Below, one piece after another: positions 25,185 to 39,597 of a stretch of DNA of 44,899 nt. Position 1 is the first letter of the stretch, and every line of letters begins with the position of its first letter. The notes beneath the pieces are model-generated. The model searched no databases and had not been told where the DNA came from. It worked only from the letters and a program-made list of their open reading frames with translations. The position numbers and the translations under genes were made by a program. Origin of the DNA: Escherichia phage SSL-2009a; sequence record NC_012223.2; one strand, given 5' to 3'.

Positions 25185-25206
25185 TGCAACCAACCTATTG
25201 GTTGCA
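25185..25206. promoter_or_regulatory. 22-bp perfect palindrome TGCAACCAA-ccta-TTGGTTGCA (operator-like)
   Basis: Seen directly; overlaps the stop codon of the HAD gene and lies just 5' of gene 24622-25173; TATAGT follows on the minus strand. Confidence 0.55.
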
Positions 25207-25665: not shown

Positions 25666-25886
25666 TTTAAGCTCTCAATAAGGGTGTATCGGGCGCTGCG
25701 CGCGGTGTAAGAGTTGCACACGAAATGACAACGTCGGGTAATGACAAGCCACCCGGTAAGGTCCATACCCAGGAGGTGTTCAGGCCGTGACACGCGACGC
25801 ACACGATCGCGGCGCGGGTCAATGTTATAGTCTTTTTGCATTTGGTCTACGACCGCGTGGTCGCGGTCAACGATTAAGATATTCAT
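25662..25886 (-). CDS. hypothetical small protein
   Basis: 74 aa from ATG 25886 (ORF extends to GTG 25895); overlaps the 3' end of the Dam-like gene by about 20 nt and the HAD start (ATGA). Confidence 0.35.
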   Translation of the reverse strand: MNILIVDRDHAVVDQMQKDYNIDPRRDRVRRVSRPEHLLGMDLTGWLVITRRCHFVCNSYTARSARYTLIESLK

Positions 25887-26352
25887 GTAGCTCACTCTCG
25901 CTCATTATTTCAATCTGTGCGCTGCCGGTGGGCGGCGCTTCGTCAAAGATTATCAATTGCTGGCACTTGTTATTGCTCGGACCGACTTCACCGGTGACTG
26001 CATGTATGAATCGGATCCGCCAGTCCAGAAGAATTATCAGGTTTGCAGTCTTCCGGGCCAGCTTTGCCCACTTCGTCGACGTGTCCTGATTCAGCAGCAT
26101 GACGGTCCGGCGTCCGTGCGCTGCGCACTTAACCCACGGCAGCGGATCGGAATACGGCGGGTTGCACCACTTCCACCCTTTCAACTCTGACCAGTCCGCA
26201 TCGAGCGCGCTGTGCTCTGCCGTGAAGTAACGCGGTAGCAGGTGGTTGGCATCGCTCGCCGCCATGTCATAACGGAATCGGTACTTCCGACGAAGCGGTT
26301 TAAATAAAGCTGGCGGAGTGCGCCAGCCATCTTTTTGCTCACTCTTCTGCAT
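25867..26352 (-). CDS. DNA N6-adenine methyltransferase (phage Dam-like)
   Basis: 161 aa; N-terminal DGWRTPP and catalytic NPPY motif (WCNPPYSD). Confidence 0.75.
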   Translation of the reverse strand: MQKSEQKDGWRTPPALFKPLRRKYRFRYDMAASDANHLLPRYFTAEHSALDADWSELKGWKWCNPPYSDPLPWVKCAAHGRRTVMLLNQDTSTKWAKLARKTANLIILLDWRIRFIHAVTGEVGPSNNKCQQLIIFDEAPPTGSAQIEIMSESELHEYLNR

Positions 26353-26797
26353 GGTCTGGATCTATCGCGTACAGGGCAATTTTCTTATTACTGTTTAGAA
26401 CGCGTTGCACGCGCTTTGATTCCTCGGCGCCGAGCGGTCGGCAGTCGGAGTAGTAAGACCCGTTCCCCCGCCACGCAACCAGCACCAGGTCTTTCCGGTC
26501 AATCTTAGACTGGCGGCCCTTCGGACGCACGTACTCCTCGGCCCGTTTGCAATGCTCACGCAGCCCGTCGGCAGTGATGCGGTTTAGTGCAACGCTGGTG
26601 GTGTATCCGGTGCGCTGCATAATCCCCATCAATTCGAATAGCAGTTCGAAACGCTCCTCTAGCTCCTGGCGCACTTTCTTCTCCCCTTCATATAGCGCCT
26701 GGTTGGTGTCCGCCAACGCGTTCGCACGTTCGGCCTGTTCTCGAGCTTCGAGGCATTGCGCTGCCCAGTAATTTTTCTCTTCTTGTAAAATTTTCAT
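26339..26797 (-). CDS. hypothetical protein with N-terminal coiled coil
   Basis: 152 aa, SD GGAG 9 nt upstream; overlaps Dam start; no catalytic motif recognised. Confidence 0.5.
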   Translation of the reverse strand: MKILQEEKNYWAAQCLEAREQAERANALADTNQALYEGEKKVRQELEERFELLFELMGIMQRTGYTTSVALNRITADGLREHCKRAEEYVRPKGRQSKIDRKDLVLVAWRGNGSYYSDCRPLGAEESKRVQRVLNSNKKIALYAIDPDHAEE

Positions 26798-27040
26798 TTA
26801 TTTAATCTCCGTTGTGCGGATTTCATTGCGTGGAATAAGTTTGCCGCCAATCTCCACCCAGCAGACACCGTAGCGCCATTGGGTATTACGTCCCGTTTGC
26901 TCGGCGTACACGGTCTTGCATTCGTAGCGTTCCGTGTAGTAAATAGCCGTCGAAGGTATGCCAATACAACCGGCAATCATGAGGGTGAGTAGCACCCAAA
27001 ATCGAAGGTCGCCGTCGTAGTCGAAAAATAATGATTTCAT
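26798..27040 (-). CDS. small membrane protein
   Basis: 80 aa, SD GGAGA; one predicted TM helix (FWVLLTLMIAGCIGIPSTAIYY). Confidence 0.45.
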   Translation of the reverse strand: MKSLFFDYDGDLRFWVLLTLMIAGCIGIPSTAIYYTERYECKTVYAEQTGRNTQWRYGVCWVEIGGKLIPRNEIRTTEIK

Positions 27041-27059
27041 CTCACTGTCTCCGGGTATT

Positions 27060-27085
27060 AAAAAGGGCGTCCAAACCGGACACCC
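27060..27085 (-). terminator. intrinsic terminator hairpin on minus strand (between HNH-like gene and membrane protein gene)
   Basis: Minus-strand RNA GGGUGUCC-gguuu-GGACGCCC followed by UUUUU; located immediately downstream of a candidate promoter -10. Confidence 0.45.
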
Positions 27086-27087
27086 TC

Positions 27088-27121
27088 AATATAATGCAAC
27101 CAATATGATTATGCAACCAAT
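27088..27121 (-). promoter_or_regulatory. candidate promoter with two direct ATTGGTTGCAT sites (-35 TTGCAT, 17 nt, -10 TATATT)
   Basis: atgcaaccaat at 27094-27104 and 27111-27121 (+ strand); on the minus strand the first copy supplies TTGCAT, the second fills the spacer, TATATT at 27093-27088. Confidence 0.5.
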
Positions 27122-27444
27122 TTACGCATAAAAGTTAGGGTCGCGCGCAACGTCCACCAAATAGAGATTGCTGATCCGGTTGCCGTAATGGCCTGGCGTG
27201 CGCTGACGGCACACAACGGCAAAGCTGGGGGGATTGTATTGCCAGTCTCAATAATCCACGCCACGCGTGCGCCAGACAGCGTCTTGCCGTTGCATTCGAT
27301 ACGAGTACCGCCATCGGCAGTATTGAGGTTGCCAATCTTGCAGCCGGTGGACTTTAGGCGGATAACGCCTGTTTTGCTGTCGTAGGAAAAAAGCTGATTG
27401 GTCATTGCCACTGAAAAGTCGATGGCGTCGAATGCAGTATTCAT
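27109..27444 (-). CDS. HNH/AP2-like homing-endonuclease-related protein (putative)
   Basis: 111 aa, SD GAGGA; FSYDSKTGVIRLK...IECNGKTLSGARVAW resembles the N-terminal module of free-standing phage HNH endonucleases, but no clear HNH His was identified. Confidence 0.4.
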   Translation of the reverse strand: MNTAFDAIDFSVAMTNQLFSYDSKTGVIRLKSTGCKIGNLNTADGGTRIECNGKTLSGARVAWIIETGNTIPPALPLCAVSARQAITATGSAISIWWTLRATLTFMRKLVA

Positions 27445-28136
27445 TTTAAATTTTCCTCGTTAACCGCTATCGCGAAGCCGCGCGGGGTGAGCGACCTGAT
27501 TAATTTGGTGCGGGCAGATTTGCCTCCGAGGCGACTATACTGCTTCGAGTACCCTTTTTCAACGAATACCGGCTTTTTCTCTGGTATACGGAAGCCGTTG
27601 CCGGTCCATAAGCAGGTCAGCTTCGGATATGAATCGCGGGCGTTGATGTATTCCGGGAAGAGCGGGTGCACGTCATCCTCCGGCAAATAGCCGCCATACT
27701 CCCACGGGTCAAACGAGTGGTCCGGCTTACGCCATTGAGTGGAGAGCACGCTGCGCGGATTCTCAATCATATATGGCACTTCAAAGAAATCACCCAGGTA
27801 AGCGGCGATCTTCGCGGTGCGCACCGCCTTAAGCTGGAAGGCAGGGTCGCGGGCGCGTTTGCGCGGGAAAGCTGGCGCACCGCTCACCGCCAGATCCGTA
27901 CACGGCGGGAATGCGTATATGATATCCGGCGCGCCGAAATCACCATTCATCGCGCGGTCAACGAAGTCCAGGTCGATAAACTCATTACGATATCGAATGC
28001 CGCAACCATAGATCCGGTAATCAAGGTACAACCCGTGATCGGCTTCGGAGTAGTTGAAGCAATAACACTTATGCCCCATCTCGGCAGCACGCTCAATCAT
28101 CAAGCCGCTGCCGTCAAATAATGACCATATAATCAT
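27441..28136 (-). CDS. C5-cytosine DNA methyltransferase-like protein (short, no obvious target-recognition domain)
   Basis: 231 aa; motif I-like LFDGSG, PC motif AFPPCTDLAVSG, ENV-like MIENP; shorter than typical Dcm-class enzymes. Confidence 0.55.
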   Translation of the reverse strand: MIIWSLFDGSGLMIERAAEMGHKCYCFNYSEADHGLYLDYRIYGCGIRYRNEFIDLDFVDRAMNGDFGAPDIIYAFPPCTDLAVSGAPAFPRKRARDPAFQLKAVRTAKIAAYLGDFFEVPYMIENPRSVLSTQWRKPDHSFDPWEYGGYLPEDDVHPLFPEYINARDSYPKLTCLWTGNGFRIPEKKPVFVEKGYSKQYSRLGGKSARTKLIRSLTPRGFAIAVNEENLK

Positions 28137-29593
28137 TTGCGCGCCTTTTTAGCTTTCATGTATTCCATTAGATCGTCCTGGATATCGCGCTTACTGTCGC
28201 GACGCTCGGCGACCAGTTCGTCCAGTGTGCCGCGCGCCTGGATAATGTAGACGAATACTGGACGAGGGTGTCCGGCTTGCATCTGGCGAACTGGCCCGAT
28301 ACGCTCCACGATCTGCGCAAAGTGCTCATAGTTCCAGGTGTCTGAGAAGATAGCAAGGTGGTGTCCGCCATCCTGCAAGTTAAGGCCGTGACCCGCCGAA
28401 GCCGGGTGTGCGAACATGATGGGGATCTCACCCCTGTTCCACGCTTCCATATCCTTATTCCCTTGCTTTCCCTTACCCATCGCGACGCCGTGCGGGAATT
28501 TCTTCTTAAGACGTGCCAAGTCATGCTTGTACTGGTATGCGACGAGCAACGGCGCGCCGTTCAACTCCTCCACGATACTTTCCAGCGCGTCCAGTTTAGC
28601 GTCGTGAATTTTCACCCATTCGTCGGTGCGCTCGCCGTCTTCGTCGACTTTATACACGGCCCCGGAAGCAAGCTGAAGGCACTTAATAGTCTTCGACGCG
28701 GCGTTAGCCGCCTCCACTGTCCCGCTTTCCAGTTCGGCAAATAGCTCCGCTTCGAACTGGTCATAAATCTTGCGGGCTTTCTTCGGCAGGTCCACAACAA
28801 CCGGCGTATAGATCGGCTTGTCACACCCGAAGTATTCAGCCGCGTCAACTGTTAGCGACACGTCGGACAGGCGTTGTTGGATTTCTTTCTCGGAGTTCTT
28901 AAGCGGGGCGTGCTGCATAGTGAAGCTGCCAGGCTTAACAGGCTTGCTAATAAACCAGCGATCCGTGAATGCCTTATAACTACTGCCGAGGCGTTCGCCC
29001 CCGTCGACAAACCACGTCTGGCCCCATAGGTCTTTTAGTCCGTTTGGTGCGGGTGTGCCGGTCAGGTTAATCCAGCGCTTGACGTGCTTATGTGCGATCG
29101 CCGCCAGGGCGCGGGCGCGCTTACTTCCCTGCTTGCTTCTATATCCTTTCAGCTTAGTGGATTCATCGGCAACAACGACCGTAAAGGGCCACTCGTCGCC
29201 GCAATACTCAACAAGCCACTCAACCACATCATAGTTAACACAAACCACGTTAGCGTCGCTCTCAAGCGCAGCGATGCGGTCCTTCTCTGACCCGGTGCCG
29301 TCTACTACCAGCAGGGCGGGGAAGCGCCATTTTTCTTGTTCCGGGGGCCATGTGCCAGATGCAACGCGCAGCGGGGCCAGCACCAGTACGCGGTCCTCCT
29401 GGTTGGACAGGATGCCGGTCTGGAACATTTTATTCAGCGCCCACATGGTCGCGCCTGTTTTACCCGACCCCATTGTCGCCCAAATATTGCAGCGCTTATG
29501 CTTGAGGATGAACGCGGTTATCAACTTCTGATATTCGCGACGTCGGAAACGTGCCATATCTTTATTCCGCCTTTTTCCAGACTTCGGTTTCAC
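28133..29593 (-). CDS. SNF2-family DNA helicase
   Basis: 486 aa; Walker A TMGSGKTG, motif II VVADESTKLK, SNF2 motif III LTGTPAPN, C-terminal helicase motifs; GTG start with SD AAGGA. Confidence 0.8.
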   Translation of the reverse strand: MKPKSGKRRNKDMARFRRREYQKLITAFILKHKRCNIWATMGSGKTGATMWALNKMFQTGILSNQEDRVLVLAPLRVASGTWPPEQEKWRFPALLVVDGTGSEKDRIAALESDANVVCVNYDVVEWLVEYCGDEWPFTVVVADESTKLKGYRSKQGSKRARALAAIAHKHVKRWINLTGTPAPNGLKDLWGQTWFVDGGERLGSSYKAFTDRWFISKPVKPGSFTMQHAPLKNSEKEIQQRLSDVSLTVDAAEYFGCDKPIYTPVVVDLPKKARKIYDQFEAELFAELESGTVEAANAASKTIKCLQLASGAVYKVDEDGERTDEWVKIHDAKLDALESIVEELNGAPLLVAYQYKHDLARLKKKFPHGVAMGKGKQGNKDMEAWNRGEIPIMFAHPASAGHGLNLQDGGHHLAIFSDTWNYEHFAQIVERIGPVRQMQAGHPRPVFVYIIQARGTLDELVAERRDSKRDIQDDLMEYMKAKKARK

Positions 29594-29780
29594 TGTTCCA
29601 GTTCCTTTTTGTGGCGTCGTAGTTGGTGGCGTGTCCGATGTGCACGCCGGTCGCCCGGAAGCTCTTAAATTTTTGCCAGCACACCGTTAACGGCAGCGGG
29701 TAATTCATGCCTGCGATAAACCATACTCGATCGCCTGGTTTGCATTCGCCCAGTGTGGTTAGTCGGTAGTGTTCTTTCAT
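29562..29780 (-). CDS. hypothetical small protein
   Basis: 72 aa from ATG 29780 (SD GGGAG 8 nt upstream); overlaps helicase start. Confidence 0.35.
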   Translation of the reverse strand: MKEHYRLTTLGECKPGDRVWFIAGMNYPLPLTVCWQKFKSFRATGVHIGHATNYDATKRNWNSETEVWKKAE

Positions 29781-29790
29781 CGTCATGTCT

Positions 29791-29816
29791 CCCAAAAATG
29801 GCGGGACAAGCCCGCC
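29791..29816 (-). terminator. intrinsic terminator on minus strand (GGCGGG-cuugu-CCCGCC + UUUUU), contains a GCGGGACA unit
   Basis: Hairpin directly after the stop of gene 29824-29997; T-run on the minus strand. Confidence 0.45.
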
Positions 29817-29823
29817 GTATTAA

Positions 29824-29997
29824 TTATGCTTGCGCGGCACGGTAGCGGCGCTGCCGTTCACGCTCTTTTTTATTTCGGCACGATTTGCACTCGGCCCGAT
29901 ACCCGTCTGGGCTGCGCGCCGTCTTTCCGGTGTATTTGTGGAACTGGGATAGCGGTTTAACACAACCGCAATTACTACAACGTTTTTCTTCAACCAT
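29824..29997 (-). CDS. small zinc-ribbon protein with basic tail
   Basis: 57 aa from ATG 29997 (SD GAGGA 8 nt upstream); CxxC...C..C (CSNCGC ... ECKSC) followed by KKERERQRRYR. Confidence 0.4.
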   Translation of the reverse strand: MVEEKRCSNCGCVKPLSQFHKYTGKTARSPDGYRAECKSCRNKKERERQRRYRAAQA

Positions 29998-30028
29998 TTC
30001 TAAAATCCTCGATAGGGCTAACCGGCCC

Positions 30029-30062
30029 ACTATACTGCTACGCGACCAATTCAGCAACCAAT
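30029..30062 (-). promoter_or_regulatory. candidate promoter (-35 TTGCTG within ATTGGTTGCTG, 17 nt, -10 TATAGT)
   Basis: On the minus strand; -35 overlaps the last codons of the VRR-NUC gene, -10 at 30034-30029, upstream of the zinc-ribbon gene. Confidence 0.4.
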
Positions 30063-30316
30063 AAATCACAGTCGTCTATGTTGTCGATGACGCGAACGTC
30101 CGCACCACGGCGGGCCATTCGCTCATGTTCACGTATCTGGTGCGGCTTCGGTTTTCCGCCCGGGCGCTTCACTTCGACGAACACTATTTTGCCGTTGATG
30201 ATGATAATCAGATCGGGCGCACCTGCGCGCCCCTCCCATGCCACTTTACGGCAGAATCCGCCGACGGCTTTCACCTGTTTCATCAGGTATATTTGAATCC
30301 TGCCCTCGGGTGTCAT
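30038..30316 (-). CDS. VRR-NUC domain nuclease
   Basis: 92 aa; GAPDLIII...VFVEVKRPGGKPKPHQ matches the PD-(D/E)xK pattern of VRR-NUC proteins (D, E-x-K, Q). Confidence 0.65.
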   Translation of the reverse strand: MTPEGRIQIYLMKQVKAVGGFCRKVAWEGRAGAPDLIIIINGKIVFVEVKRPGGKPKPHQIREHERMARRGADVRVIDNIDDCDLLVAELVA

Positions 30317-30504
30317 TTTGTTTGCAACTCCACGTTACGCAGACGAAGGTCTACCGGTATCTCCGATCGACCAGTTAGCGCCAGCGCCAGGTTTTCCGGT
30401 GTGACAAGTGCCGTAATGGTCTTGCCACGTTCCAGTCTAATGACGATGCTAATCTCATCATTGTCCGCCGCGCCAGCGCGCATAATGCTCATATCTGCTT
30501 TCAT
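30313..30504 (-). CDS. hypothetical small protein
   Basis: 63 aa from ATG 30504 (SD AGGAA 8 nt upstream; ORF extends to TTG 30549); immediately downstream of the DNA polymerase stop. Confidence 0.4.
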   Translation of the reverse strand: MKADMSIMRAGAADNDEISIVIRLERGKTITALVTPENLALALTGRSEIPVDLRLRNVELQTK

Positions 30505-30508
30505 AATA

Positions 30509-32800
30509 TTATTTCCTGTACCTATACATAATGTCGCCTTCCGCGGCAAGCGGGAATCCTTTCGCCCAAACCGGCAGGTCGCACATCAGCGCGCACAACT
30601 CCTCGGTTGTGTAGTCGTCGGTATCCGGCACTTCGGTTATCAGTTCATCGTGTACGGACAGTACGATCTCATACCCCGCAGCTTCAACGCCAGGCATGGA
30701 CCATGCGAGGATATCGCGGCACAGCGCCTGCACGATGTTTTCCGTCAGTTTGCCGCCGTAGGTGTACTGGAATCCCCACTGGCGCGTCGTCTGATTCTCA
30801 CCCTGATATTTAATGCGGGTGCTGGTGCGTTTCTTGCCGGTGTCTTCGTCGATCTCGGTCGTGACAGACAGCGCGATGCCGGGGTAGCTCATGATGCGCC
30901 CCGACGGTAACTCAATTTTCAACCACCACCCCGCGGCGTTCGGGTCGTCGCGTTCCTCGTCGAAGGTTGGGTCATGCTTCGCCTTCGTGCGGACTATCTT
31001 GAGCGCTTTCTTTCCATCCGGGCGAACGTTCGCGCCCGCCCAGTACGCTTTGCCCGGATTGCGGATCGCACAGAGCACCGCGTCTTCCAGTTCGGCCCAA
31101 AATGCTACCGTCTTCGGGTGCGACTCACGCCACATACGTTTGATTGCATCACACGTCAGCCATACGTTTTTCGGCAGTATGTAAGTCGGGCGCTCGTCCT
31201 TCTTGCCCGGCTTCGGCGGGCGCTTCGCTTCGTTAATGCGGGCGTATTCATAACCCCGTTTCGCCGCCGCCCATATGTGATCGGGGAATGTGCCCTTCAT
31301 CACTTCAGCCATCGCGTAAAGGTCGAGGCCCAGGTTTTTAGCGAACTGCAAGAACGCCGCCACGCCGCCACCATAGCCCAGGCCCAATTCGCACGCCTTA
31401 CCGATCTGGCGTAAGTCTTTGCGGTTGGCTTTAATGTATTCTGGGTCAAGGCCGAACATCTTACCGGCAGTTTCACAATAAATGTCGCGACCGGCCTTAA
31501 ACACCATTAGCGCTGTTTTCTCGCCAGCGATCCAGGCAAGTCCACGCCCTTCCACGTTGGAGTAGTCCGCTACGACAAACTTCTTACCCTTCGCCGGAAT
31601 AATGCACCCACGAACAGTCGAGGCCGTTAGCTTCGATATGTCATACGCCCAGTGCGCTGTCCCACGTAACAGGGAGTTGATGCCGTTGGTGAGCATGTGC
31701 GACCGCACCCAAAACGCGACGTCGCTCTCGCCCTCACGGCGCTTAATCTTCCCTTCGTGGTCGTCGCTATACTCGCCTCGCGCCAGGTTTTGCGGCTGGA
31801 AGCCTTTACCGGCCCAGCGTAGCGTGCGCTTTGCCCCACCATACTGAAGACAACCACGGCGGCGACCATCGGCGGACAGACCATTTACAAGCGGATTGTA
31901 CTTAGTCGATGCCGTTGATGACGCACCGAGGCGCATTTCGATAAGCACTTTGCCTTCGTCGGGGAAGTCTGGGTCTTCCAGCAGGTCGTTAAGCGTGGAT
32001 TTCTGCGCGTTGTGAATTGTGAACGCAGGCGCGAGGTCGCGCAGCGCTGGCAAGAAGTCATTGCCAGTCAGCTTACCGCCGAAGCGCTCCCAGGCTTCTT
32101 CCTTCAATTCTTCCTTATGCGCCTGTACCGCTTTGATCGCAGCGCGCGCCAGGTCAACGTCCACATAGAAGCCGCGGTCATTGATCAACTGGTCAATAAG
32201 CAGGATTTCGTCTTCCTTCGGCGTGTTACCCCAGTCCGGTATGCGCCAATAGACTTCCCTCATCGCTATAATATCCAGCGCGGCATAGCGCAGGAATTTA
32301 GCCCATTCTTCAGGGTGAGTCTCGCGAGTGTAGCGGCGGATTTTGTAAGTCTTAGGGGTGGGCTTACAGAATCGTTTAATCAGCGCCTTGCCTGCCTTAT
32401 CCTTCGCGTGCTCTGCGTCAACGCCCAGCACCTGGCATTGCATATCGAGGCTACCGGGCAGCGCGTGGCGAAAGGCCATAATCATGGTATCTTCGATCTG
32501 ACACACTGGCAGGTCAATGCCCCACTTCTCGCGAATAACCAGGCGGTCAAACAGGAGGCCGTTAGCCATCACTATTTTTGCTTTCTTGCGGGATACCCGG
32601 CGGAGCGCCTTGCGCAGTTCACGCGGCATTGTGGGGGACTCGGTGCAATCCCACGTTTGCACGCGGCCTTCGTCGATGGCGTATGTGCAAATCATAATCT
32701 CAGTAGTTGGGTGTTCCGCGTAGGCGTATGCGCCCACTTTCTTCAGATCCACCCCGCTAAATGTCTCGGTATCGAGAAACAGGCGTTCAAAGTCTTTCAT
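30509..32800 (-). CDS. DNA polymerase I-type (family A) with 3'-5' exonuclease domain
   Basis: 763 aa; N-terminal exo motif LFLDTETFSG; polymerase motif A VADYSNVEGRGLAW, motif B RQIGKACELGLGYGGG, motif C VHDELI. Confidence 0.9.
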   Translation of the reverse strand: MKDFERLFLDTETFSGVDLKKVGAYAYAEHPTTEIMICTYAIDEGRVQTWDCTESPTMPRELRKALRRVSRKKAKIVMANGLLFDRLVIREKWGIDLPVCQIEDTMIMAFRHALPGSLDMQCQVLGVDAEHAKDKAGKALIKRFCKPTPKTYKIRRYTRETHPEEWAKFLRYAALDIIAMREVYWRIPDWGNTPKEDEILLIDQLINDRGFYVDVDLARAAIKAVQAHKEELKEEAWERFGGKLTGNDFLPALRDLAPAFTIHNAQKSTLNDLLEDPDFPDEGKVLIEMRLGASSTASTKYNPLVNGLSADGRRRGCLQYGGAKRTLRWAGKGFQPQNLARGEYSDDHEGKIKRREGESDVAFWVRSHMLTNGINSLLRGTAHWAYDISKLTASTVRGCIIPAKGKKFVVADYSNVEGRGLAWIAGEKTALMVFKAGRDIYCETAGKMFGLDPEYIKANRKDLRQIGKACELGLGYGGGVAAFLQFAKNLGLDLYAMAEVMKGTFPDHIWAAAKRGYEYARINEAKRPPKPGKKDERPTYILPKNVWLTCDAIKRMWRESHPKTVAFWAELEDAVLCAIRNPGKAYWAGANVRPDGKKALKIVRTKAKHDPTFDEERDDPNAAGWWLKIELPSGRIMSYPGIALSVTTEIDEDTGKKRTSTRIKYQGENQTTRQWGFQYTYGGKLTENIVQALCRDILAWSMPGVEAAGYEIVLSVHDELITEVPDTDDYTTEELCALMCDLPVWAKGFPLAAEGDIMYRYRK

Positions 32801-32967
32801 TGCTTAATCCTCACCACGGCGTCAGCACTGCCGATCATGGAGAAGATACCGTCGGAAAGGGTAATCTCCTCGCCGTTGTTGCGAATCTCGGCAACTGTGA
32901 AATATTCGCCCAGCATTTTGGACCATACTTGCATTCCGACTTTTACTTCGCTGGCTTTAATACGCAT
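32797..32967 (-). CDS. hypothetical small protein (56 aa), translationally coupled to DNA polymerase
   Basis: ATG at 32967, stop overlaps the polymerase start codon (ATGA); below the 60-aa cut-off of the ORF track, found by manual translation. Confidence 0.35.
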   Translation of the reverse strand: MRIKASEVKVGMQVWSKMLGEYFTVAEIRNNGEEITLSDGIFSMIGSADAVVRIKQ

Positions 32968-32982
32968 TTTTCATTGTCCTAT

Positions 32983-33006
32983 TAAAAAGCCCGCATTAAG
33001 CGGGCT
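32983..33006 (-). terminator. intrinsic terminator on minus strand after SSB gene
   Basis: GCCCGC-loop-GCGGGC with UUUUU on the minus-strand transcript. Confidence 0.5.
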
Positions 33007-33025
33007 TGAATAGTGGGCTTTGCCC

Positions 33026-33805
33026 TTAACGGCGGCGACGTTTACGTGGCGCTTCGTCTTCGTCGTCGTCCTCATCTTCGTCATCGCGTGGCTTACGACG
33101 TTTACGAGGTTTTTCATCTTCGTCGTCTTCGTCATCGCGGCGCTTGGACTTTTTGGACTTGCGCGGCTTGTCGTCTTCGTCATCGTCATCACGACGTTTT
33201 GACTTTTTGGACTTGCGCGGGCTTTCATCTTCGTCATCGTTGTCCAGGTCTTCGTCTGAGCACGAAGATCCGCCACCGCCGAAGGCTTCGCCGTCATCAC
33301 GGAAGCGCAGACCCAAAAGACCAGCACCGAGTCCCTTGCCGTTGGTATTGTTCCACGCCCAGATATCGAGGGACACGTTGCAATAACAACCGGAGTAGAT
33401 CTCCTGGCCTTCGATCTCGTCGCCTTCTACGGTCAGACCTTGTTCAGTCTGCTTCTCGCCGAGTGACGTTTGAATGATCGGCTGCTTGAACGATTTGGCG
33501 TTGATGTACAACATGCCTTCGAATTCTTCGGTTACTTCGTCGCGCTCGTCACCGTCGCGAACTGCGCATTCCTTAGAATCCTGGGCGTAGTGGCGGTCCA
33601 TCCACTTATCGGCATTCTTCTCGGATTTCAGCTTGTCGGTGAGCACTGCGCGCGCTGCCGCTTCCACTTTGTCCACCTGCGGATCTTCTTTATCCAGAAG
33701 AATCACGGCACGGTATGCCGGTTTTTGTCCATCCTGTTTAGGGGTATCACGTTCCCAAATTTTCAGGAAACATACGCGCACTTTTTTCAGGTTGACTTTA
33801 GCCAT
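33026..33805 (-). CDS. single-stranded DNA-binding protein candidate (T7 gp2.5-like) with repetitive mixed-charge C-terminal tail
   Basis: 259 aa from ATG 33805 (SD AGGAA); N-terminus MAKVNLKKVRVCF resembles gp2.5-like SSBs (by recollection); C-terminal 70 residues are tandem D/E-rich and KPRKSKKSKRR-type repeats. Confidence 0.5.
   Translation of the reverse strand: MAKVNLKKVRVCFLKIWERDTPKQDGQKPAYRAVILLDKEDPQVDKVEAAARAVLTDKLKSEKNADKWMDRHYAQDSKECAVRDGDERDEVTEEFEGMLYINAKSFKQPIIQTSLGEKQTEQGLTVEGDEIEGQEIYSGCYCNVSLDIWAWNNTNGKGLGAGLLGLRFRDDGEAFGGGGSSCSDEDLDNDDEDESPRKSKKSKRRDDDDEDDKPRKSKKSKRRDDEDDEDEKPRKRRKPRDDEDEDDDEDEAPRKRRRR
33030..33245 (-). repeat. tandem coding repeats (about 55-bp period) in the SSB C-terminal tail
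   Basis: ttggactttttggacttgcgcgg repeated at 33144-33166 and 33198-33220 with flanking gtc/ttc triplet runs. Confidence 0.55.
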
Positions 33806-33861
33806 TTTCCAATTCCTCATTTTCACATGTATCGGGGTTATTGTGAGCCACCCCGTTCGGC

Positions 33862-33886
33862 TTGGTTGCCAATCTACTTGGTTGCG
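33862..33886 (+). promoter_or_regulatory. two direct TTGGTTGC half-sites (plus-strand orientation) between minus-strand genes
   Basis: cttggttgcc (33861-33870) and cttggttgcg (33877-33886), spaced 16 bp; orientation opposite to the flanking genes. Confidence 0.35.
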
Positions 33887-33895
33887 CCTAAGCGG

Positions 33896-34138
33896 TCAAG
33901 CACTTTCATTAAAAAGATTTCTGGTCACGTAGTTGGTGGCGTTCTCAATCCAGCTTAACGGCGGTCGGTCGATGTTCTTCTCCACCCAGTGGACGGCAGC
34001 GTCACTATATCCGTCATCAAGCCAGCGGGTCGGATGGCGAATCATCCACGCCACCATTAACACGCCTTGCACGCAATGCAGGATAAAGCCCAGCGCGCCG
34101 AGTAAAAACATCAATAAGATTGCAAATACTTTATTCAT
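33896..34138 (-). CDS. small membrane protein (two predicted TM helices)
   Basis: 80 aa, SD GAGGA; hydrophobic segments FAILLMFLLGALGFIL and VLMVAWMI. Confidence 0.45.
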   Translation of the reverse strand: MNKVFAILLMFLLGALGFILHCVQGVLMVAWMIRHPTRWLDDGYSDAAVHWVEKNIDRPPLSWIENATNYVTRNLFNESA

Positions 34139-35561
34139 TGCCTAAGTCCTCGTCAGTGGCCTCCGACCACGCAGGGCGCGGGTCGTCGATTGGTGCTAAC
34201 ACCGGTTTAGCGGGTGCGCGTGTGATTTTAGCACACAGCTTCGCCCACACTTTCGGTTTTTCGTCCTTCAGTACCTTCTCGGCATCTGTCGGGCTGAGCA
34301 ATGTTTCTTTGTACATCACATCGCGCTTGATCCGGGCCTTCGTGAAGATTTCAATCACTTCGCTCTCGTCCGCCCACTTACGGATCCCTTCCTTACCGGC
34401 AACCATCTTGAGGCCCAGCGATTCGCCATCGCCCGCCATGACCGCCTTGAATACCGCGGACTCGATAGCCTTGATGTGCTGGCGCATTGCGTCCAGGCCT
34501 TCATAAGCCTTGCGCAGTTCCGCAGCGCTCATAGCGCCTGGTGTGGATTCCTTCTTGCCTCGTTTAGCACGTCGTGCCGCCTTCCGGGCTTCGCGGGCCA
34601 TATTGCGATCGTGGTTGGCGCATTCTTCCTCGGTCGCCTCGCTCACGTCGTCGCCCAGGTCTTCGTCGGTTGCCGTTGGTGGTGTCATAGTGTCGATTGC
34701 GGCCTTCGCCCGGACGCTGCACTGGTCCGCAAATCTGCACCACTGGCACGCATCGACGCTGGGCCGGAAGTCCGCGCGGGTTAGTCCCTTCTTGCCGCGG
34801 GCGTATGCATCGAGCGCGGCGATAGCACGCTTGGACGCAAACTTCGCGAATATCTCCAGGGCTTCTACCGAAATATCCCATTCCGACGCCCCACCGCAAT
34901 ACGGCTGGAAGATAACCAGGCGCACGGACGTAATGTCGTACATGGTTTGCAGCTTGCGCAGCAGGCCGAGCGCGTACAACATAAGCTGTTTGTTTTCTTT
35001 CGCCTCGACCTTATGCCGCCCGGTCTTCAGGTCGCCAACAATCAGCATGTACGTTCCGTCGGTCTTTTTCATGACCATGACCATATCGGCAGTACCGAAC
35101 GTTTTAATCCTGTCGCCGTCGATCTCGAAGCCTGAGTGAAGGACGCGGGTAAGATCGGCGCGCATCTCAAGCTGGACAAACTCCGCCACTTCAAGGAGCG
35201 GACGCCAGTGGTCGATGTATGCATCGCACTGCTTCACCATGTCGTCGTTGACCAGTACGCCGCCTTTCGGTGCTTTCGGGTGGGCCTTTACTGGCCCCTT
35301 GCCTTCGTTCTCGACGTAGCACCCTTTATACGTCTTAGCGGTTATTTTCTTCTCACCGGCGATAATGCGGTTTAGTACCACCTCAGATACGGTGTGCATA
35401 CTCGTACCGTTAATCGCGGCTTGCCCGGATTCGTTCGGGATATCTTTTTCTACCACCAGGGCGGCGGGACACCCCATCCATTTTTTAGCACCGGATGGGC
35501 CAAGTAATGAGTGTTCCGTATTACTACCTGATTGCGTTTTACGTTTTGGTTTAATCGCCAT
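34131..35561 (-). CDS. Cas4-like / RecB-family PD-(D/E)xK exonuclease
   Basis: 476 aa; N-terminal Cys (WMGCPAA), nuclease core GDLKTGRHKVEAK with QLMLYAL (QxxxY), C-terminal Cys triad CQWCRFADQC consistent with a Cas4-type Fe-S cluster. Confidence 0.65.
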   Translation of the reverse strand: MAIKPKRKTQSGSNTEHSLLGPSGAKKWMGCPAALVVEKDIPNESGQAAINGTSMHTVSEVVLNRIIAGEKKITAKTYKGCYVENEGKGPVKAHPKAPKGGVLVNDDMVKQCDAYIDHWRPLLEVAEFVQLEMRADLTRVLHSGFEIDGDRIKTFGTADMVMVMKKTDGTYMLIVGDLKTGRHKVEAKENKQLMLYALGLLRKLQTMYDITSVRLVIFQPYCGGASEWDISVEALEIFAKFASKRAIAALDAYARGKKGLTRADFRPSVDACQWCRFADQCSVRAKAAIDTMTPPTATDEDLGDDVSEATEEECANHDRNMAREARKAARRAKRGKKESTPGAMSAAELRKAYEGLDAMRQHIKAIESAVFKAVMAGDGESLGLKMVAGKEGIRKWADESEVIEIFTKARIKRDVMYKETLLSPTDAEKVLKDEKPKVWAKLCAKITRAPAKPVLAPIDDPRPAWSEATDEDLGNE

Positions 35562-35749
35562 TATTCCACCCTTGAAAACTGAGCAATGTAATATTCATGT
35601 TTAACACCGGCCCGCTTCGCGGCTTCGTTCATGGTAGCCGCCAAACCTCGGGCTTGAGTCCAGCAGCAATTCCAGTTCTGATTCATAACAATTTCTGGTT
35701 GCTCATCGCCGGTAATACGGCAACGAAATAAAACAAAGAATATAGCCAT
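35561..35749 (-). CDS. hypothetical small protein
   Basis: 62 aa, SD GGGAGA; stop overlaps the start of the Cas4-like gene (TAATG). Confidence 0.35.
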   Translation of the reverse strand: MAIFFVLFRCRITGDEQPEIVMNQNWNCCWTQARGLAATMNEAAKRAGVKHEYYIAQFSRVE

Positions 35750-36001
35750 TTATTTTGTCTCCCAGCGGTCAATTGTTTTTGCTTCGGATGCAACTGCGAA
35801 GCGAACATATTCCAGATTAGAATCCGCCCAAATATAAAAGTCGGGGTTAGTAAATGTGGTGCGCTTAATTTGCGCGGGGGTGTTGCGGCGTTTATCAATT
35901 ACAGCAACGCGCGATTGAAAGCTGCCGATGCGTTCGAATAACCAATAGTACGGGCGCTGGTCGCGGGAATCCACCGCCTCGATTAGCGTGAAGCGTGCCA
36001 T
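35750..36001 (-). CDS. hypothetical protein
   Basis: 83 aa, SD GAGGA 7 nt before ATG 36001. Confidence 0.45.
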   Translation of the reverse strand: MARFTLIEAVDSRDQRPYYWLFERIGSFQSRVAVIDKRRNTPAQIKRTTFTNPDFYIWADSNLEYVRFAVASEAKTIDRWETK

Positions 36002-36012
36002 TGTCTCGTCCT

Positions 36013-36041
36013 CTAAAAAGAGGCCCGCAGATTAGCGGGCC
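36013..36041 (-). terminator. intrinsic terminator on minus strand after the first gene of the leftward operon
   Basis: GGCCCGC-loop-GCGGGCC followed by UCUUUUU on the minus strand; overlaps the leader of the next gene. Confidence 0.45.
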
Positions 36042-36049
36042 GGATAATA

Positions 36050-36592
36050 TTAGTCTTCCAGTTCGAAATAAGTTTCGACGATTTCTTTTAGCTCGGTGTG
36101 GAAGTCTTCGACGTCGTCGTCTTCCAGTTTAGCGATTGATTTGATCTCGAACGATTCCAGCAGGTCGTCGAATTCGTCGTTCGCATCATCATCATCGCCG
36201 CCTGCAATAATAGCGGCATACTGTTTGATTTCGTCGCGCATCTCTGCCAGCGGGTCGGCTTCTTTCTTACCTTTGCCTTTCGCTGGTGCTTTTTTACCCT
36301 TCGCCGGTTTTTCGTCTTCGGCTTCATCATCATCGTCGTCATCCTCTACGACTTCTTTTTTGGCCTTTCCTTTAGACTTGGTTTCTTTTGCCGCGCCTTT
36401 TTTCGCCTTGGGCGTATCTTCGACTTCGTCCTGATCGTCGTCTTCGACTTCAGTCTCCGGCTTTGCCTTGCCTTTCTTAGCGGTGCCGTTTGCTTTTGGG
36501 CCTACGGCAGCGCCCACAGTTTCATAATGTTTAGCGATGGTTTCCAGTGCTACTACGCCGCGAGTGATCAGGTTTACGATTTGCTCAAACAT
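36050..36592 (-). CDS. highly charged acidic/lysine-rich protein (first gene of leftward early operon)
   Basis: 180 aa from ATG 36592 (SD GGAG 7 nt upstream; the six-frame ORF extends to 36820 but the upstream part lacks a start context); alternating poly-D/E and K-rich blocks. Confidence 0.5.
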   Translation of the reverse strand: MFEQIVNLITRGVVALETIAKHYETVGAAVGPKANGTAKKGKAKPETEVEDDDQDEVEDTPKAKKGAAKETKSKGKAKKEVVEDDDDDDEAEDEKPAKGKKAPAKGKGKKEADPLAEMRDEIKQYAAIIAGGDDDDANDEFDDLLESFEIKSIAKLEDDDVEDFHTELKEIVETYFELED

Positions 36593-36795
36593 GGTATATC
36601 TCCGATTGGTTAAGTTTAGGTGTCGGCAGTAAACTTCGTCGGTGGCCTTAACATAGTGCCAGGTTACGCGTTCTCCCTTTCGGGTAGTGGACCTGGTTAT
36701 ATAATCACGGTTGGGAATCCTGACACTTCGATCCGGCCCCTGCGTTGCCCCTCTCCAGTTTGCGTCCTGCATCCTGTCGACGAGGTGAATATTAG

Positions 36796-36805
36796 ATTGG
36801 TTGCA
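36796..36805 (+). promoter_or_regulatory. ATTGGTTGCA motif copy in the divergent control region
   Basis: Exact 10-mer; TTGCAG could serve as a -35 with TAATTT about 16 nt downstream. Confidence 0.35.
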
Positions 36806-36825
36806 GAAGGGAGTCAACAACTAAT

Positions 36826-36862
36826 TTAAAAAAAAAGCGCCGAAGCAAAATGCGACGGCGCT
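36826..36862 (-). terminator. terminator-like hairpin with A9/T9 tract in the divergent control region
   Basis: AGCGCCG-13 nt loop-CGGCGCT preceded on the + strand by AAAAAAAAA (U-run on the minus-strand transcript); no annotated gene upstream on the minus strand. Confidence 0.35.
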
Positions 36863-36932
36863 AACCAATAAGAGACAATGAGACGGGAGTATTATTACAC
36901 GCGTGCGCGCCCGTTTCAATATTCCAAAGGAG

Positions 36933-36961
36933 TTGACACCCTGCGGTTTTAGGTGTAGTTT
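36933..36961 (+). promoter_or_regulatory. candidate sigma70 promoter for the rightward early operon (TTGACA, 17 nt, TAGTTT)
   Basis: Consensus -35 TTGACA at 36933-36938, 17-nt spacer, weak -10 TAGTTT; about 30 nt upstream of ATG 36993. Confidence 0.4.
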
Positions 36962-36962
36962 C

Positions 36963-36979
36963 GTTGGTCATTAACCAAC
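36963..36979. promoter_or_regulatory. inverted repeat GTTGGT-catta-ACCAAC overlapping the leader of the HTH gene
   Basis: Perfect 6-bp arms; the arm sequence matches the core of the ATTGGTTGCA family. Confidence 0.35.
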
Positions 36980-36992
36980 CGGAGACAGAATA

Positions 36993-37322
36993 ATGAATAT
37001 CAACGACGCAATCGAAATGTTAACTAAGACTGTTTGCAGTGAGACTAGCCGGTCGTGGGCTTATACCGATGCCGTTGGGGCGGTGCTATTTGAGGTCGAG
37101 CGCCTGCGCAGTGTAGAAAAAGAATTACGCGCCAGGCTGGAATTGCTCAACGGTACAGCGGCGAGCAAGCTGCAGAAGCACAATGAAGAAATGGAAGAAT
37201 ATAAAAAACAGGTTATCAGTTTGCGCGCCGAGGGCAAATCCTGGGCGATGATTGCCGAGTTGACCGGAATTAATCAGAGCACAGTGCGCTCCTGGGTACG
37301 CAATAATAAAACTTCTAAGTAA
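36993..37322 (+). CDS. helix-turn-helix DNA-binding protein (putative transcriptional regulator)
   Basis: 109 aa, SD GGAGA; C-terminal HTH-like segment SWAMIAELTGINQSTVRSWV. Confidence 0.55.
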   Translation: MNINDAIEMLTKTVCSETSRSWAYTDAVGAVLFEVERLRSVEKELRARLELLNGTAASKLQKHNEEMEEYKKQVISLRAEGKSWAMIAELTGINQSTVRSWVRNNKTSK

Positions 37323-37332
37323 GGTCACGGCA

Positions 37333-39597
37333 ATGAGCTTAATTAAATTCGCTGTAACAAGACCCGCTAAAAAAGGCGAAAAAGCCAGGGCGGAAAACTT
37401 CCAGATGACTACCGAAGAGTTTTTCGAATTTATCAATGATGCGAAAGAAATCTCCTCGGTGCATATCAACAAAACGGAAGATAAAGCCGAGTATGCACGC
37501 CGCAAGCGTAAGGCCGACGGCATCGTGGCGTATACCAGTGACGGATTGCGTCGCAAGACCAGTGCGGTGGACCGCTCGATCCTGTTCTTCGATATTGACC
37601 GTACTGACACCCGCACCCTACGCCGCTGCCGTAAGGCGTTCACCGACGCGGGACTGGAGCACGTCTTCCACACCACAACCGGCGACCGTCACCCACTGAA
37701 AGGTGGAACGCGTTGCGCTCGCTTCCTTGTGTTGACCGACAAGCCTGTACCGGCTGAAGACCTGGGCCGTGTCCAGTATGCGCTATTACACCAACTGGGC
37801 CTGTCAGACGTGGACTTCGACGACTGCACGAAAGACACAAACCGCCTTATGTACCTGCCACACCAGCAGTCTGTTATTAAGTGCCACTATGGCAAGCGCG
37901 CCCGCGTCCGTCGTCTGCTCCGCCAGGCTGACAAGCTGGGAGTTGAGAAAGAGGAAGTCCGCCGCGAACTGACCCAGGGCGACGACGCAGTGGCAGACGG
38001 CATTCTGGACTGGTGCTTCCAGGCAGGATTCGAGGAGTTATCTTCCGGTCGCGGTTATGAAGTGCCGTGCCCGAACGAACATCTGCACAGCGGCGAAGGG
38101 TCAACGGCTATCATGGTCAAGGATGGCGAGATCCGTTTCAAGTGTATGCACACCGGCAACGAGTGTTGCTCGGAACTGAATAGACACCAGCACCTGGCGC
38201 TACGTCTTATAGGTATCCCGGACCACCTGAACGTCGAGCCACACAATATGTCCCGTAAGCAAATCGCCGCCATCCTGCCGGGGTTGGACGACGAGGAGGT
38301 CGAATCCTTATACGAACATATTGTTGATGCGGTTGGTGACGGCGAAGAATACGGCGTGTGCACCGATGCGGATCTGGATAACGAGCCGGTCGCACTATTC
38401 AGTAAGCACGACCCGATTATCGAGGGGTTGATTAACTTTAAATCGACCTGGTATCTCGCCGGTGAGTCGAACATTGGTAAGTCTTTCTATGTGCTGGGGC
38501 AAATGGCGTCAGTATCTGCCGGTATTCCGTTTGGGGGGGCGAAGGTCGTCCAGTGCCACAACTTCTATTTCGATGCGGAAGGTGGCGAAGCCTCAAATCA
38601 GCGTAAAGAAGCATTGCAGATTAAATACGAGCACGACCTGGACAAGCTGCACATTATCGATCTGCAATCACGCGGCTGGGATATCACCAGCAAATCCGGC
38701 TTGCGCGAAGTTATCAGCTTCATCAACCGCACCGCTAACGGCGAACCAGTTGGCCTGGTGGCGTTCGACTCACTCAACCAGACTGTTGCGCTGCGGTCCG
38801 CCGATGCTAAACCGTTTGACGAGAACAACGCCAGCGATATGGGTGAAGTGGTCAAAGCGCTGAAAGCCATTGCGGAAAATACAGGTGGCAGTGCTGGCGT
38901 CATCCACCACCCGGCGAAAGGTGCAAACGGCAGCAGAACCCCACGCGGATCCGGTGCGCTGCATGGTGCTGTCGATTCAGCTTTCTTCCTGGAACAGCCA
39001 GACGACAACCAGCCAGGCCAATTGAACCTGTATCACGAAAAGTCACGTAACGGCATCAAGCAAGCGCCGCGTGGCTTCGTCCTGCTCAAGTGCAAGGTGA
39101 AGGTAGATCTCCGCAAGTCGGAAGCGTTCGCGTCGCACCAGTCCACCAGCACCGGGCCGGACTTCGGCGACGTCGTTGCCGGTTGGGACGTCAAACCAAT
39201 TGCGTCCACGCCACGCGACGAGACTCTATACCTCGTACCGGTCGCCCTGGCACCGTTCGCTATAGAACAGGCGAAGGCCGCAGGGAAAGCCGCAGTTAAG
39301 GAAGAGAACACCGCAGGACCGCGCAACGAAAAAGAGAAAGTGCTTTATGCGGCCCTGGAAAAACTGATGGAAGATAACCCGGACCATACTGGATTCAGTA
39401 AATCGGCAATCGTCCGCCAGGCGGGACTCGCGAAGGGGGGCACTTCGACGAAGGCAATCGACGATATGGTCGAGCGCGGCGTGATTGGTTTCTATACAGA
39501 TCCGCACACCGGGGCCATCTATGGGTCGTCGAATTTAGTTATCAAATCGGATATCCCCATTACGCTTTCGGCGACCGATGACGACCTGAAAGATTAA
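37333..39597 (+). CDS. DNA primase/helicase-type replication protein (P-loop ATPase with zinc-binding region)
   Basis: 754 aa; Cys/His cluster CPNEHLHSGEG...FKCMHTGNECC; Walker A GESNIGKS and Walker B-like LVAFDSLNQ; immediately followed by iteron locus B. Confidence 0.7.
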   Translation: MSLIKFAVTRPAKKGEKARAENFQMTTEEFFEFINDAKEISSVHINKTEDKAEYARRKRKADGIVAYTSDGLRRKTSAVDRSILFFDIDRTDTRTLRRCRKAFTDAGLEHVFHTTTGDRHPLKGGTRCARFLVLTDKPVPAEDLGRVQYALLHQLGLSDVDFDDCTKDTNRLMYLPHQQSVIKCHYGKRARVRRLLRQADKLGVEKEEVRRELTQGDDAVADGILDWCFQAGFEELSSGRGYEVPCPNEHLHSGEGSTAIMVKDGEIRFKCMHTGNECCSELNRHQHLALRLIGIPDHLNVEPHNMSRKQIAAILPGLDDEEVESLYEHIVDAVGDGEEYGVCTDADLDNEPVALFSKHDPIIEGLINFKSTWYLAGESNIGKSFYVLGQMASVSAGIPFGGAKVVQCHNFYFDAEGGEASNQRKEALQIKYEHDLDKLHIIDLQSRGWDITSKSGLREVISFINRTANGEPVGLVAFDSLNQTVALRSADAKPFDENNASDMGEVVKALKAIAENTGGSAGVIHHPAKGANGSRTPRGSGALHGAVDSAFFLEQPDDNQPGQLNLYHEKSRNGIKQAPRGFVLLKCKVKVDLRKSEAFASHQSTSTGPDFGDVVAGWDVKPIASTPRDETLYLVPVALAPFAIEQAKAAGKAAVKEENTAGPRNEKEKVLYAALEKLMEDNPDHTGFSKSAIVRQAGLAKGGTSTKAIDDMVERGVIGFYTDPHTGAIYGSSNLVIKSDIPITLSATDDDLKD

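Follow-up and report, generated by a model that had tools for sequence, protein, structure and literature searches.

Several phage cassettes follow the same neighborhood logic, in which a protein that inhibits the host's RecBCD nuclease is encoded together with the phage's own recombination genes: Gam with Exo and Bet, gp5.9 with gp6, and Abc2 with Erf. A locus with this kind of neighborhood was analyzed in Escherichia phage SSL-2009a (NC_012223.2). The window, i.e., the whole stretch of DNA that was analyzed, is the complete 44.9-kb genome (44,899 bases) of this Dhillonvirus, and all positions refer to it unless another sequence is named. One complete viral contig in IMG/VR has exactly this sequence. 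The gene under study (36050 to 36592, minus strand) encodes a strongly acidic protein of 180 amino acids and lies next to phage exonuclease and SSB (binding protein for single-stranded DNA)/annealing genes, as is the case for RecBCD inhibitors; this neighborhood was found in the window and in three other lineages. Because the linkage to an exonuclease and an annealing SSB recalls the phage cassettes that carry a RecBCD inhibitor, a target of the RecBCD type was placed first among the possible functions. We tentatively propose that the protein presents an acidic, DNA-mimic-like head on a flexible tether and serves the recombination/replication module, with host RecBCD as the leading candidate target. 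The gene is preceded by a structured leader RNA, which is the part of the locus most likely to be new.

The acidic protein has two conserved ends and a variable linker

The 180-amino-acid protein contains 53 D/E and 29 K/R residues and has a net charge of -24. The initial annotation had described it as alternating poly-Asp/Glu and Lys-rich blocks with short helical ends and had suggested disorder and structure prediction as a check. Prediction with AlphaFold2 revealed an N-terminal helix, a disordered middle part, and a three-helix C-terminal domain modeled with confidence. The alternation of D/E-rich and K-rich blocks was confirmed for residues 28 to 112 and lies far above chance (kappa of 0.48; none of 1,000 shuffled sequences was equally segregated). 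The description of the ends holds for the N terminus, which forms one helix of 23 residues, but not for the C terminus, which is predicted to be a folded domain of about 65 residues with three helices.

The N-terminal amphipathic helix (residues 2 to 23; 36524 to 36589, minus strand; predicted local distance difference test [pLDDT] of about 55 to 67) is the part best conserved across genera and shows a hydrophobic stripe by reading of the sequence. Residues 1 to 25 of the homologue from an uncultured relative are 76 to 92% identical to those of Jerseyvirus and Kagunavirus homologues, and L8, R11, A15, E17, and A20 of the helix are invariant. The C-terminal domain (residues 113 to 180; 36053 to 36256, minus strand; pLDDT of 84 to 95) contains 26 D/E and 5 K/R residues, is 38% acidic, and carries -21 of the net charge of -24. 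Five of its acidic residues (D135, D139, D142, D158, and D160) are invariant across genera, and E140, D143, E146, E162, and D163 are nearly so.

The linker between these ends (residues 28 to 112; 36257 to 36511, minus strand; pLDDT of <50) consists of the alternating blocks and is neutral overall (24 acidic residues against 22 basic ones). In a set of 92 Dhillonvirus-type cluster representatives, its length ranged from 25 to 89 amino acids with peaks near 50 and 77, at a median net charge of 0 and a charged fraction of 0.53. Length changes occur in whole acid-plus-basic modules, and the shortest natural linkers, of 25 amino acids, have only 5 basic residues. In more distant relatives, poly-Asp blocks are absent and the spacer is rich in P, E, K, and A. 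Because the linker varies in length and distant relatives carry another spacer, comparison of the sequences indicates that the alternating blocks are a lineage-specific, dispensable elaboration of a tether.

The gene is a real coding sequence under purifying selection, which is strong at both ends. In comparison with 16 relatives, 54 synonymous versus 10 nonsynonymous codon differences were counted in the first 27 codons, which encode the N-terminal helix, and 229 versus 39 in the last 68 codons, which encode the C-terminal domain.

The protein was assigned to the PHROG 3127 family. Residues 1 to 180 match profile positions 1 to 178 of 178 (E = 3.1e-51), and 179 homologous clusters were found. 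By sequence, the protein is thus placed in a known but uncharacterized family. A tblastn search with the homologue of the uncultured relative matched 630 phage records, including Jerseyvirus and Kagunavirus (Guernseyvirinae) as well as phages of Edwardsiella, Serratia, and Klebsiella. Independently, gp46 of Edwardsiella phage eiAU and the "13.88 kDa late protein" of Salmonella phage MB78 were retrieved when viral models were searched by fold. The MB78 protein belongs to the same family, yet the gene analyzed here lies in the early/replication block; "late protein" is a name merely carried over in annotations. Nothing substantive was found in the literature on the MB78 "13.88 kDa late protein."

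The coding sequence starts at the internal ATG

The open reading frame (ORF) extends on the minus strand from an ATG at 36592 to a TAA stop codon at 36050 to 36052, and the assignment of the coding sequence is based on the ORF list, the sequence, the PHROG match, and the selection described above. A Shine-Dalgarno sequence, GGAG (36600 to 36603, minus strand), was read from the sequence 7 nt before the ATG. The ORF map bears out the earlier statement that, past the divergent control region, the leftward early block opens with this gene. The same annotation had called the gene promoter-proximal, which needs correction, as a leader of about 190 nt that includes a structured RNA separates the ATG from the nearest promoter-like site (36817 to 36789).

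GenBank records of relatives annotate a protein of 207 to 239 amino acids that starts upstream (e.g., OR911938, 36474 to 37193; MZ501095, 35758 to 36471), adding about 60 codons across the leader RNA. In the window, the longer ORF would begin with TTG at 36820 or ATG at 36772 and encode 240 to 256 amino acids. This ORF was rejected. In six relatives the upstream frame is closed or of unrelated sequence, and where it is closed, the closure lies one or 21 codons before the ATG. PHROG 3127 aligns in full length from the internal Met, and the 240-amino-acid form matches only from residue 61. Substitutions upstream of the ATG obey the rules of RNA base pairing and not those of codons. Given the closed frames, the start of the PHROG alignment, and the RNA-type substitutions, the upstream start is wrong, and the longer annotation (36593 to 36820 in the window) is an artifact of an accidentally open frame.

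The gene keeps its position before nuclease, SSB, and polymerase genes

The gene region is 90 to 97% identical to that of more than 140 Dhillonvirus phages in GenBank, including JL1, HK578, EP23, SECphi4/18, and the BASEL phages. In the window, the structural genes run rightward from about 56 to 24,000. The leftward, minus-strand block (24005 to 36592), of which the acidic-protein gene is the first, encodes an SNF2-type protein, DNA polymerase A (PolA), a gp2.5/Enc34-type SSB, and a DUF2800 PD-(D/E)XK nuclease. Two small genes lie between the acidic-protein gene and the nuclease gene, and the gene for the gp2.5-like SSB-annealase follows the nuclease gene. The first of the small genes (35750 to 36001, minus strand), recognized from the ORF list, the sequence, and a match to PHROG 4965, encodes 83 amino acids. 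A divergent rightward block begins at 36993 with a gene for a small helix-turn-helix protein, followed by a primase-helicase gene.

The acidic-protein gene was always found just upstream of the genes for the DUF2800 nuclease, the Enc34/gp2.5-like SSB-annealase, and PolA in the window, the uncultured relative, Jerseyvirus SETP13, and Kagunavirus K1ind2. In the uncultured relative (33 to 45% identity), the homologue heads an operon that also encodes the DUF2800 nuclease, Enc34-type SSB, PolA, and SNF2 protein, and this operon is divergent from a helix-turn-helix gene and a primase-helicase gene, as in the window. In SETP13 and K1ind2, the control region differs and the primase-helicase gene is located upstream on the same strand. 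Since the homologue stays before the nuclease, SSB, and polymerase genes despite the rearranged control region, its spread argues for a core gene of the nuclease/SSB/polymerase cassette and not for a patchy accessory gene.

An intrinsic terminator separates the gene from the rest of the block

The initial annotation had placed an intrinsic terminator immediately after the gene, and the scan agrees. The terminator (36013 to 36041, minus strand) starts 8 bases past the stop codon and reads GGCCCGC-TAATCT-GCGGGCC followed by TCTTTTT, corresponding to 7 G-C pairs and a 6-nt loop with a folding energy of -17.2 kcal/mol. It is predicted to act leftward only, as the other strand has no T run. The ribosome-binding site (RBS) of the 83-amino-acid gene begins 2 nt past the T run. 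The stem is invariant in every relative examined, and the loop is variable (TAATCT, CAATCT, AGAATA, or ATATTA).

The initial annotation had also ascribed an attenuation of read-through to this terminator. A consensus scan revealed no promoter-like site between the terminator and positions 33899 to 33871, where an internal promoter-like site closely precedes the SSB gene. Expression of both small genes and of the nuclease gene therefore depends on read-through. The hairpin and the promoter-less downstream genes fit attenuation, which itself would be a consequence of this arrangement.

Two observations concern the history of the terminator region. In several relatives (L005, L007, L011, and L015), the stem is the same and the loop is AGATTA, the exact reverse complement of TAATCT (window 36022 to 36041). 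Because the loop is exactly reverse complemented in several phages, this sequence pattern indicates that the hairpin was inverted between its palindromic arms. In EP23-type relatives (L006, 3516 to 3650; also L018 and L037), an ORF of 41 codons (MDYEMRIMLDF...) has been inserted ahead of the terminator, past the end of the acidic-protein gene. Each end of this insert carries a copy of the duplicated junction GAAGATTAATAT, and the terminator is kept.

Possible functions of the acidic protein

The following mechanism is proposed. The locus would form a self-contained early transcription unit in which a sigma-70-type promoter and a structured 5' leader RNA are followed by one gene and the intrinsic terminator, and the downstream recombination and replication genes would be expressed by read-through of the terminator. 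In the protein, the N-terminal amphipathic helix would most likely dock onto a partner or mediate self-association, and the flexible, charge-balanced linker would act as an entropic tether of variable length. The very acidic three-helix head would be the working surface and might bind a DNA-binding surface through charge mimicry of nucleic acid. Through this contact the head could support the phage's own module of nuclease, gp2.5-like SSB-annealase, and polymerase. The favored target is the host RecBCD nuclease, which would make the protein a functional analogue of lambda Gam or T7 gp5.9. Sensitivity to a defense protein is consistent with this target. Gam and gp5.9, both inhibitors of RecBCD, trigger P2 OLD, which is reported to protect robustly against Dhillonviruses (bioRxiv 10.64898/2026.07.10.737580).

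Several points weigh against the proposed mechanism. P2 OLD is also triggered by single-stranded DNA hairpins of origins without RecBCD inhibition (bioRxiv 10.64898/2026.07.10.737580), and the sensitivity of Dhillonviruses is therefore no proof of an inhibitor. Neither in sequence nor in fold does the acidic protein resemble Gam, gp5.9, Abc2, Ocr, or ArdA, and a small three-helix bundle is a generic fold. With its long, floppy tether of variable length, the acidic protein does not look like the known rigid DNA mimics. A partner within the phage would explain the synteny equally well. Read-through is not required for every downstream gene, given the internal promoter-like site next to the SSB gene together with published SSB "promoter" escape mutations. 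The literature found contains no interaction, expression, or knockout data for a protein of the PHROG 3127 type.

Searches for known relatives of the acidic protein gave the following results. Pfam contained no family match at E ≤ 0.01, and thus none to Ocr, and NCBIfam and PADLOC gave nothing usable. A weak JetC match (E of about 1e-3) was discarded as coiled-coil or low-complexity noise, and profile matches to Protein Data Bank sequences (ribosomal protein S20 and capsid proteins) were discarded as compositional only. A profile search with the C-terminal domain alone retrieved no new architectures and no domain fusions. Two proteins described in the literature are separate entities: the published Dhillonvirus anti-Tmn protein is ORF35, which has a different fold, and the KpAvs2 trigger Ksap1 is encoded by a separate gene of 74 amino acids. 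An escape-mutant survey of SECphi4/6/18 reported the SSB and the polymerase, not the acidic-protein gene. The text of the retron papers is silent on whether RecBCD-guarding retrons block these phages.

A possibility nearly as likely as RecBCD inhibition is that the protein acts as a phage-internal hub for replication and recombination. Here the head would bind the phage's own SSB, at its basic tip or K/R blocks, or else the polymerase, nuclease, or primase-helicase at basic patches, and the N-terminal helix would anchor the protein in the complex. Such a role would be akin to the organization of a replisome by the acidic tails of T7 gp2.5 and gp4 or by the tail of E. coli SSB. The strict synteny with nuclease, SSB, and PolA across genera, the core-gene distribution, and the purifying selection agree with such a role, as does the design of the SSB. 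In all these phages the SSB has a terminal R/K-rich tip preceded by an acidic run, and the acid/basic modules increase in parallel in the SSB tail and the linker of the acidic protein. The Guernseyvirinae have one SSB-tail module and short spacers in the acidic protein, the uncultured relative has three SSB-tail modules, and Dhillonvirus has four, with up to three linker modules in its acidic protein. However, this parallel expansion rests on three lineages and may reflect a shared mutational tendency. A first, separately terminated gene suits an early function directed at the host at least as well, and the T7 replisome, which is of related design, needs no such extra protein. In the window, the tail region (33026 to 33240) of the SSB gene (33026 to 33826, minus strand) encodes four acidic-then-basic modules ending in PRKRRRR. 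These modules are partly encoded by a 54-bp tandem repeat, and relatives have one to three modules.

It is unlikely that the acidic protein serves as a condensate scaffold, in which its blocky, neutral linker and the SSB tail would drive electrostatic phase separation and concentrate the replication proteins. The high charge segregation, the neutrality at any linker length, and the presence in the same operon of a second block-patterned protein, the SSB with its repeat-containing gene, speak for this idea, and E. coli SSB is reported to phase-separate via its disordered linker. However, the blocks are lineage specific and dispensable in many relatives, and conservation lies in the folded ends and not in the linker.

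An anti-restriction function was the first suggestion of the initial annotation. An Ocr/ArdA-like DNA mimic would act immediately upon DNA entry to block type I restriction enzymes or BREX, and the protein is indeed acidic, helical, early, and first in its operon. However, it lacks a Pfam, NCBIfam, or PADLOC match, and it does not match the elongated helical dimer fold by which Ocr mimics bent B-DNA. All Dhillonviruses carry the gene, yet in the BASEL collection they were described as sensitive to type I and type II restriction in comparison with other small siphoviruses (PMC8594841). The sensitivity of the carriers argues against an effective Ocr-like function, which is accordingly rated as quite improbable. 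The general idea of mimicry by an acidic surface survives; the specific Ocr/ArdA-like role is not supported, given the missing matches and the restriction-sensitive carriers. It is the C-terminal three-helix domain, rather than the poly-D/E blocks, that carries the conserved acidic surface that could mimic nucleic acid.

The other suggestion, that the Lys-rich blocks make the protein a histone-like or nucleoid-binding factor of host takeover, was not supported and is very improbable: the blocks KAKKGAAKETKSKGKAKK and KPAKGKKAPAKGKGKK look like linker-histone tails, but homologues keep both end domains while the linker shrinks to 25 amino acids with 5 basic residues, distant relatives carry P/E/A-rich spacers in place of the blocks, each K block is neutralized by the adjoining acidic block in a protein with a net charge of -24, and neither a DNA-binding domain nor a histone-like fold was found in Pfam, NCBIfam, or structural matches.

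A structured leader RNA precedes the gene

Analysis of the region between the promoter-like site and the gene revealed a leader RNA motif of about 160 nt (36619 to 36784, minus strand), which scores 167.8 bits with its covariance model (E = 1e-42). The fold comprises seven helices inside a closing helix, and unpaired stretches as long as 22 nt are invariant in every lineage. The supporting alignment contains 27 distinct sequences and was registered by hand; such a by-eye fit favors the structure, and the margins are large. In this alignment, 97.1% of the cells are paired, versus 77.4% in shuffled controls (0 of 500 reached the observed value). Changes on both sides were found for 24 of 42 pairs, and the covariation score of 0.48 compares with 0.15 in shuffles and 0.02 to 0.06 with slid partners. 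RNAalifold applied to a plain MAFFT alignment gave misaligned variable helices, and the GGGGCY-GGCYACC pairing proposed from it was discarded. Of the helices that replaced it, one is backed by an A-U to G-C swap (columns 36/148) and the other by a double compensatory change in KA2-1.

The window holds exactly one copy of the leader, the next best match to the covariance model scoring 13 bits. Rfam 15 gave no match to the leader even at E ≤ 10, and a scan of 35500 to 37500 against Rfam gave only two subthreshold chance matches, both elsewhere than the leader. Among 100,044 bacterial and archaeal genomes, one match was found, on a phage-sized contig of 42.8 kb, and none was found in 5,426 complete E. 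coli genomes. About three-quarters of the Dhillonvirus records have the leader (in 132 of the 170 matching records, 80% or more of the element is present); records without it have a 13-nt filler in its place. The leader was also found in intergenic gaps of unrelated virulent phages, namely, the Drexlerviridae phages Motto, JLBYU38, and JK16, Jilinvirus PT1, Sortsnevirus sortkaff, and Klebsiella phage KA2-1, and in uncultured contigs. Copies are located in L032 (2501 to 2625), L033 (2501 to 2601), and L034 (2501 to 2623) and at about 1480 to 1660 in L053, L054, and L055. Outside Dhillonvirus, the copies are always oriented with the flanking genes.

The position of the leader is constant. Each copy starts 7 to 10 nt after a -10-like hexamer and ends 15 to 40 nt before an RBS, so that the leader always lies between a promoter-like site and the RBS of the next gene, and the downstream genes differ between phages. 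The conserved multihelix fold, the invariant junction nucleotides, and the 5' leader position are riboswitch-like traits. Reading of the sequences revealed no evident RBS occlusion or terminator beside the closing helix, and the downstream genes give no clue to a ligand. A terminator on the same strand lies 0.4 to 2.1 kb downstream in 9 of 16 instances, a count that does not separate antitermination from ordinary unit ends. Relatives without the leader retain the terminator of the acidic-protein gene unchanged; antitermination is therefore not required. The leader might function as a switch, as an antitermination signal that modifies the polymerase, as a site for protein binding or ribosome standby, or as a 5' stabilizer. 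As a tentative proposal, the leader might be a new class of cis-acting RNA of virulent coliphages, either a ligand- or factor-dependent switch or an element like the put RNAs of phage HK022, which would modify RNA polymerase while emerging at the start of the transcript. It would set the read-through of the terminator at 36013 to 36041 and thereby couple the acidic protein to the recombination and replication genes, and the promoter-plus-RNA cassette would be mobile among Dhillonvirus, Drexlerviridae, Jilinvirus, and Sortsnevirus.

Organization of the upstream control region

A consensus scan revealed two promoter-like sites on the minus strand upstream of the gene. The site directly before the leader, P2 (36789 to 36817), is conserved and combines TTGACT and TAATAT at a spacing of 17 nt, with a predicted start at about 36782. 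The more distant site, P1 (36891 to 36919), combines TTGAAA and a TG-extended AATAAT at a spacing of 17 nt, matches the consensus at 10 of 12 positions, and is invariant in 13 relatives. Its spacer (36893 to 36913, minus strand) includes the palindrome CACGCGTG inside the G+C-rich GGGCGCGCACGCGTG, which is invariant in the relatives. Judged by its sequence, the palindrome CACGCGTG may be an operator.

P1 is followed by a short conserved stretch (36828 to 36884, minus strand) that is nearly invariant in the relatives and represents a candidate terminated transcript of about 55 nt. A terminator hairpin at 36836 to 36862, followed by nine T residues, has a folding energy of -16.2 kcal/mol (z = -3.5). 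The stretch may give rise to a short terminated transcript directly upstream of the main promoter, or it may be an attenuator. The short upstream RNA contains CAUUGUCUC (36872 to 36880), which is complementary to GAGACAAUG (35999 to 36007), a site that covers the start codon of the gene beyond the terminator. No further occurrences exist in the window, and 0.22 would be expected by chance. When the short upstream RNA was scanned for duplex targets, nothing exceptional emerged, the CAUUGUCUC/GAGACAAUG pairing included.

On the other side of the control region, the divergent gene for 109 amino acids (36993 to 37322, plus strand) is labeled variously in relatives as a transposase, a resolvase, or "nuclease inhibitor gamma." Only a helix-turn-helix like that of sigma-70 region 4 was found in its product (residues 65 to 105). 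The 109-amino-acid protein is more plausibly a regulator of the control region.

Implications

The acidic-protein gene belongs to the core of a replication/recombination cassette that recurs in hundreds of sequenced phages infecting E. coli, Salmonella, Klebsiella, and Edwardsiella. Many of these phages serve as therapy candidates or test phages for defense systems (BASEL Bas14-18 and SECphi4/6/18). An answer to whether the protein disarms RecBCD or organizes the replisome would help to show how small virulent siphoviruses protect and replicate linear DNA and might account for the sensitivity of these phages to guard systems such as P2 OLD. The naturally occurring linkers, which range from 25 to 89 residues while the net charge stays constant, offer a ready-made experiment on a charge-block tether. 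The leader, which covaries, is absent from Rfam and bacterial genomes, and is tied to a promoter, is a tractable candidate for a new phage regulatory RNA. On the practical side, GenBank records of relatives carry a false protein of 207 to 239 amino acids across this RNA.

Comparison with known systems

The put RNAs of HK022 and the PR'-6S RNA-tR' region of lambda are promoter-proximal RNA signals that control whether transcription passes terminators farther downstream. Like them, the leader is a structured RNA at the predicted transcription start, and in the window a terminator lies downstream in the predicted unit. The resemblance to PR'-6S-tR' extends to the predicted short terminated transcript just upstream (36828 to 36919). 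The put RNAs have about 70 nt and two stem-loops; in contrast, the leader has about 160 nt and seven helices and lacks sequence resemblance to put.

The acidic protein resembles Ocr and ArdA in its strongly acidic helical surface and in its predicted synthesis first after DNA entry. However, Ocr and ArdA form an elongated dimer with the shape of B-DNA, and the acidic surface described here is predicted to be a bundle of 65 residues. The acidic tails of T7 gp2.5 and gp4 and the linker and tip of E. coli SSB likewise are flexible charged tethers that offer an acidic element to replication proteins, and all of these are tied to a polymerase A/gp2.5-type replication module. The element of gp2.5 and SSB is a tail on an OB-fold protein, whereas the acidic protein is a separate protein with a folded head and an N-terminal helix of its own, and the phage SSB tail ends in a basic tip and not in an acidic one.

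With respect to the RecBCD inhibitors, the published structures of Gam and gp5.9 are compact coiled-coil dimers, in contrast to the disordered tether and the predicted three-helix head of the acidic protein. The likeness lies in their genetics and composition: all are small, acidic, all-helical early proteins that are encoded beside an exonuclease and an annealing protein or SSB and that serve phages with exposed linear DNA ends.

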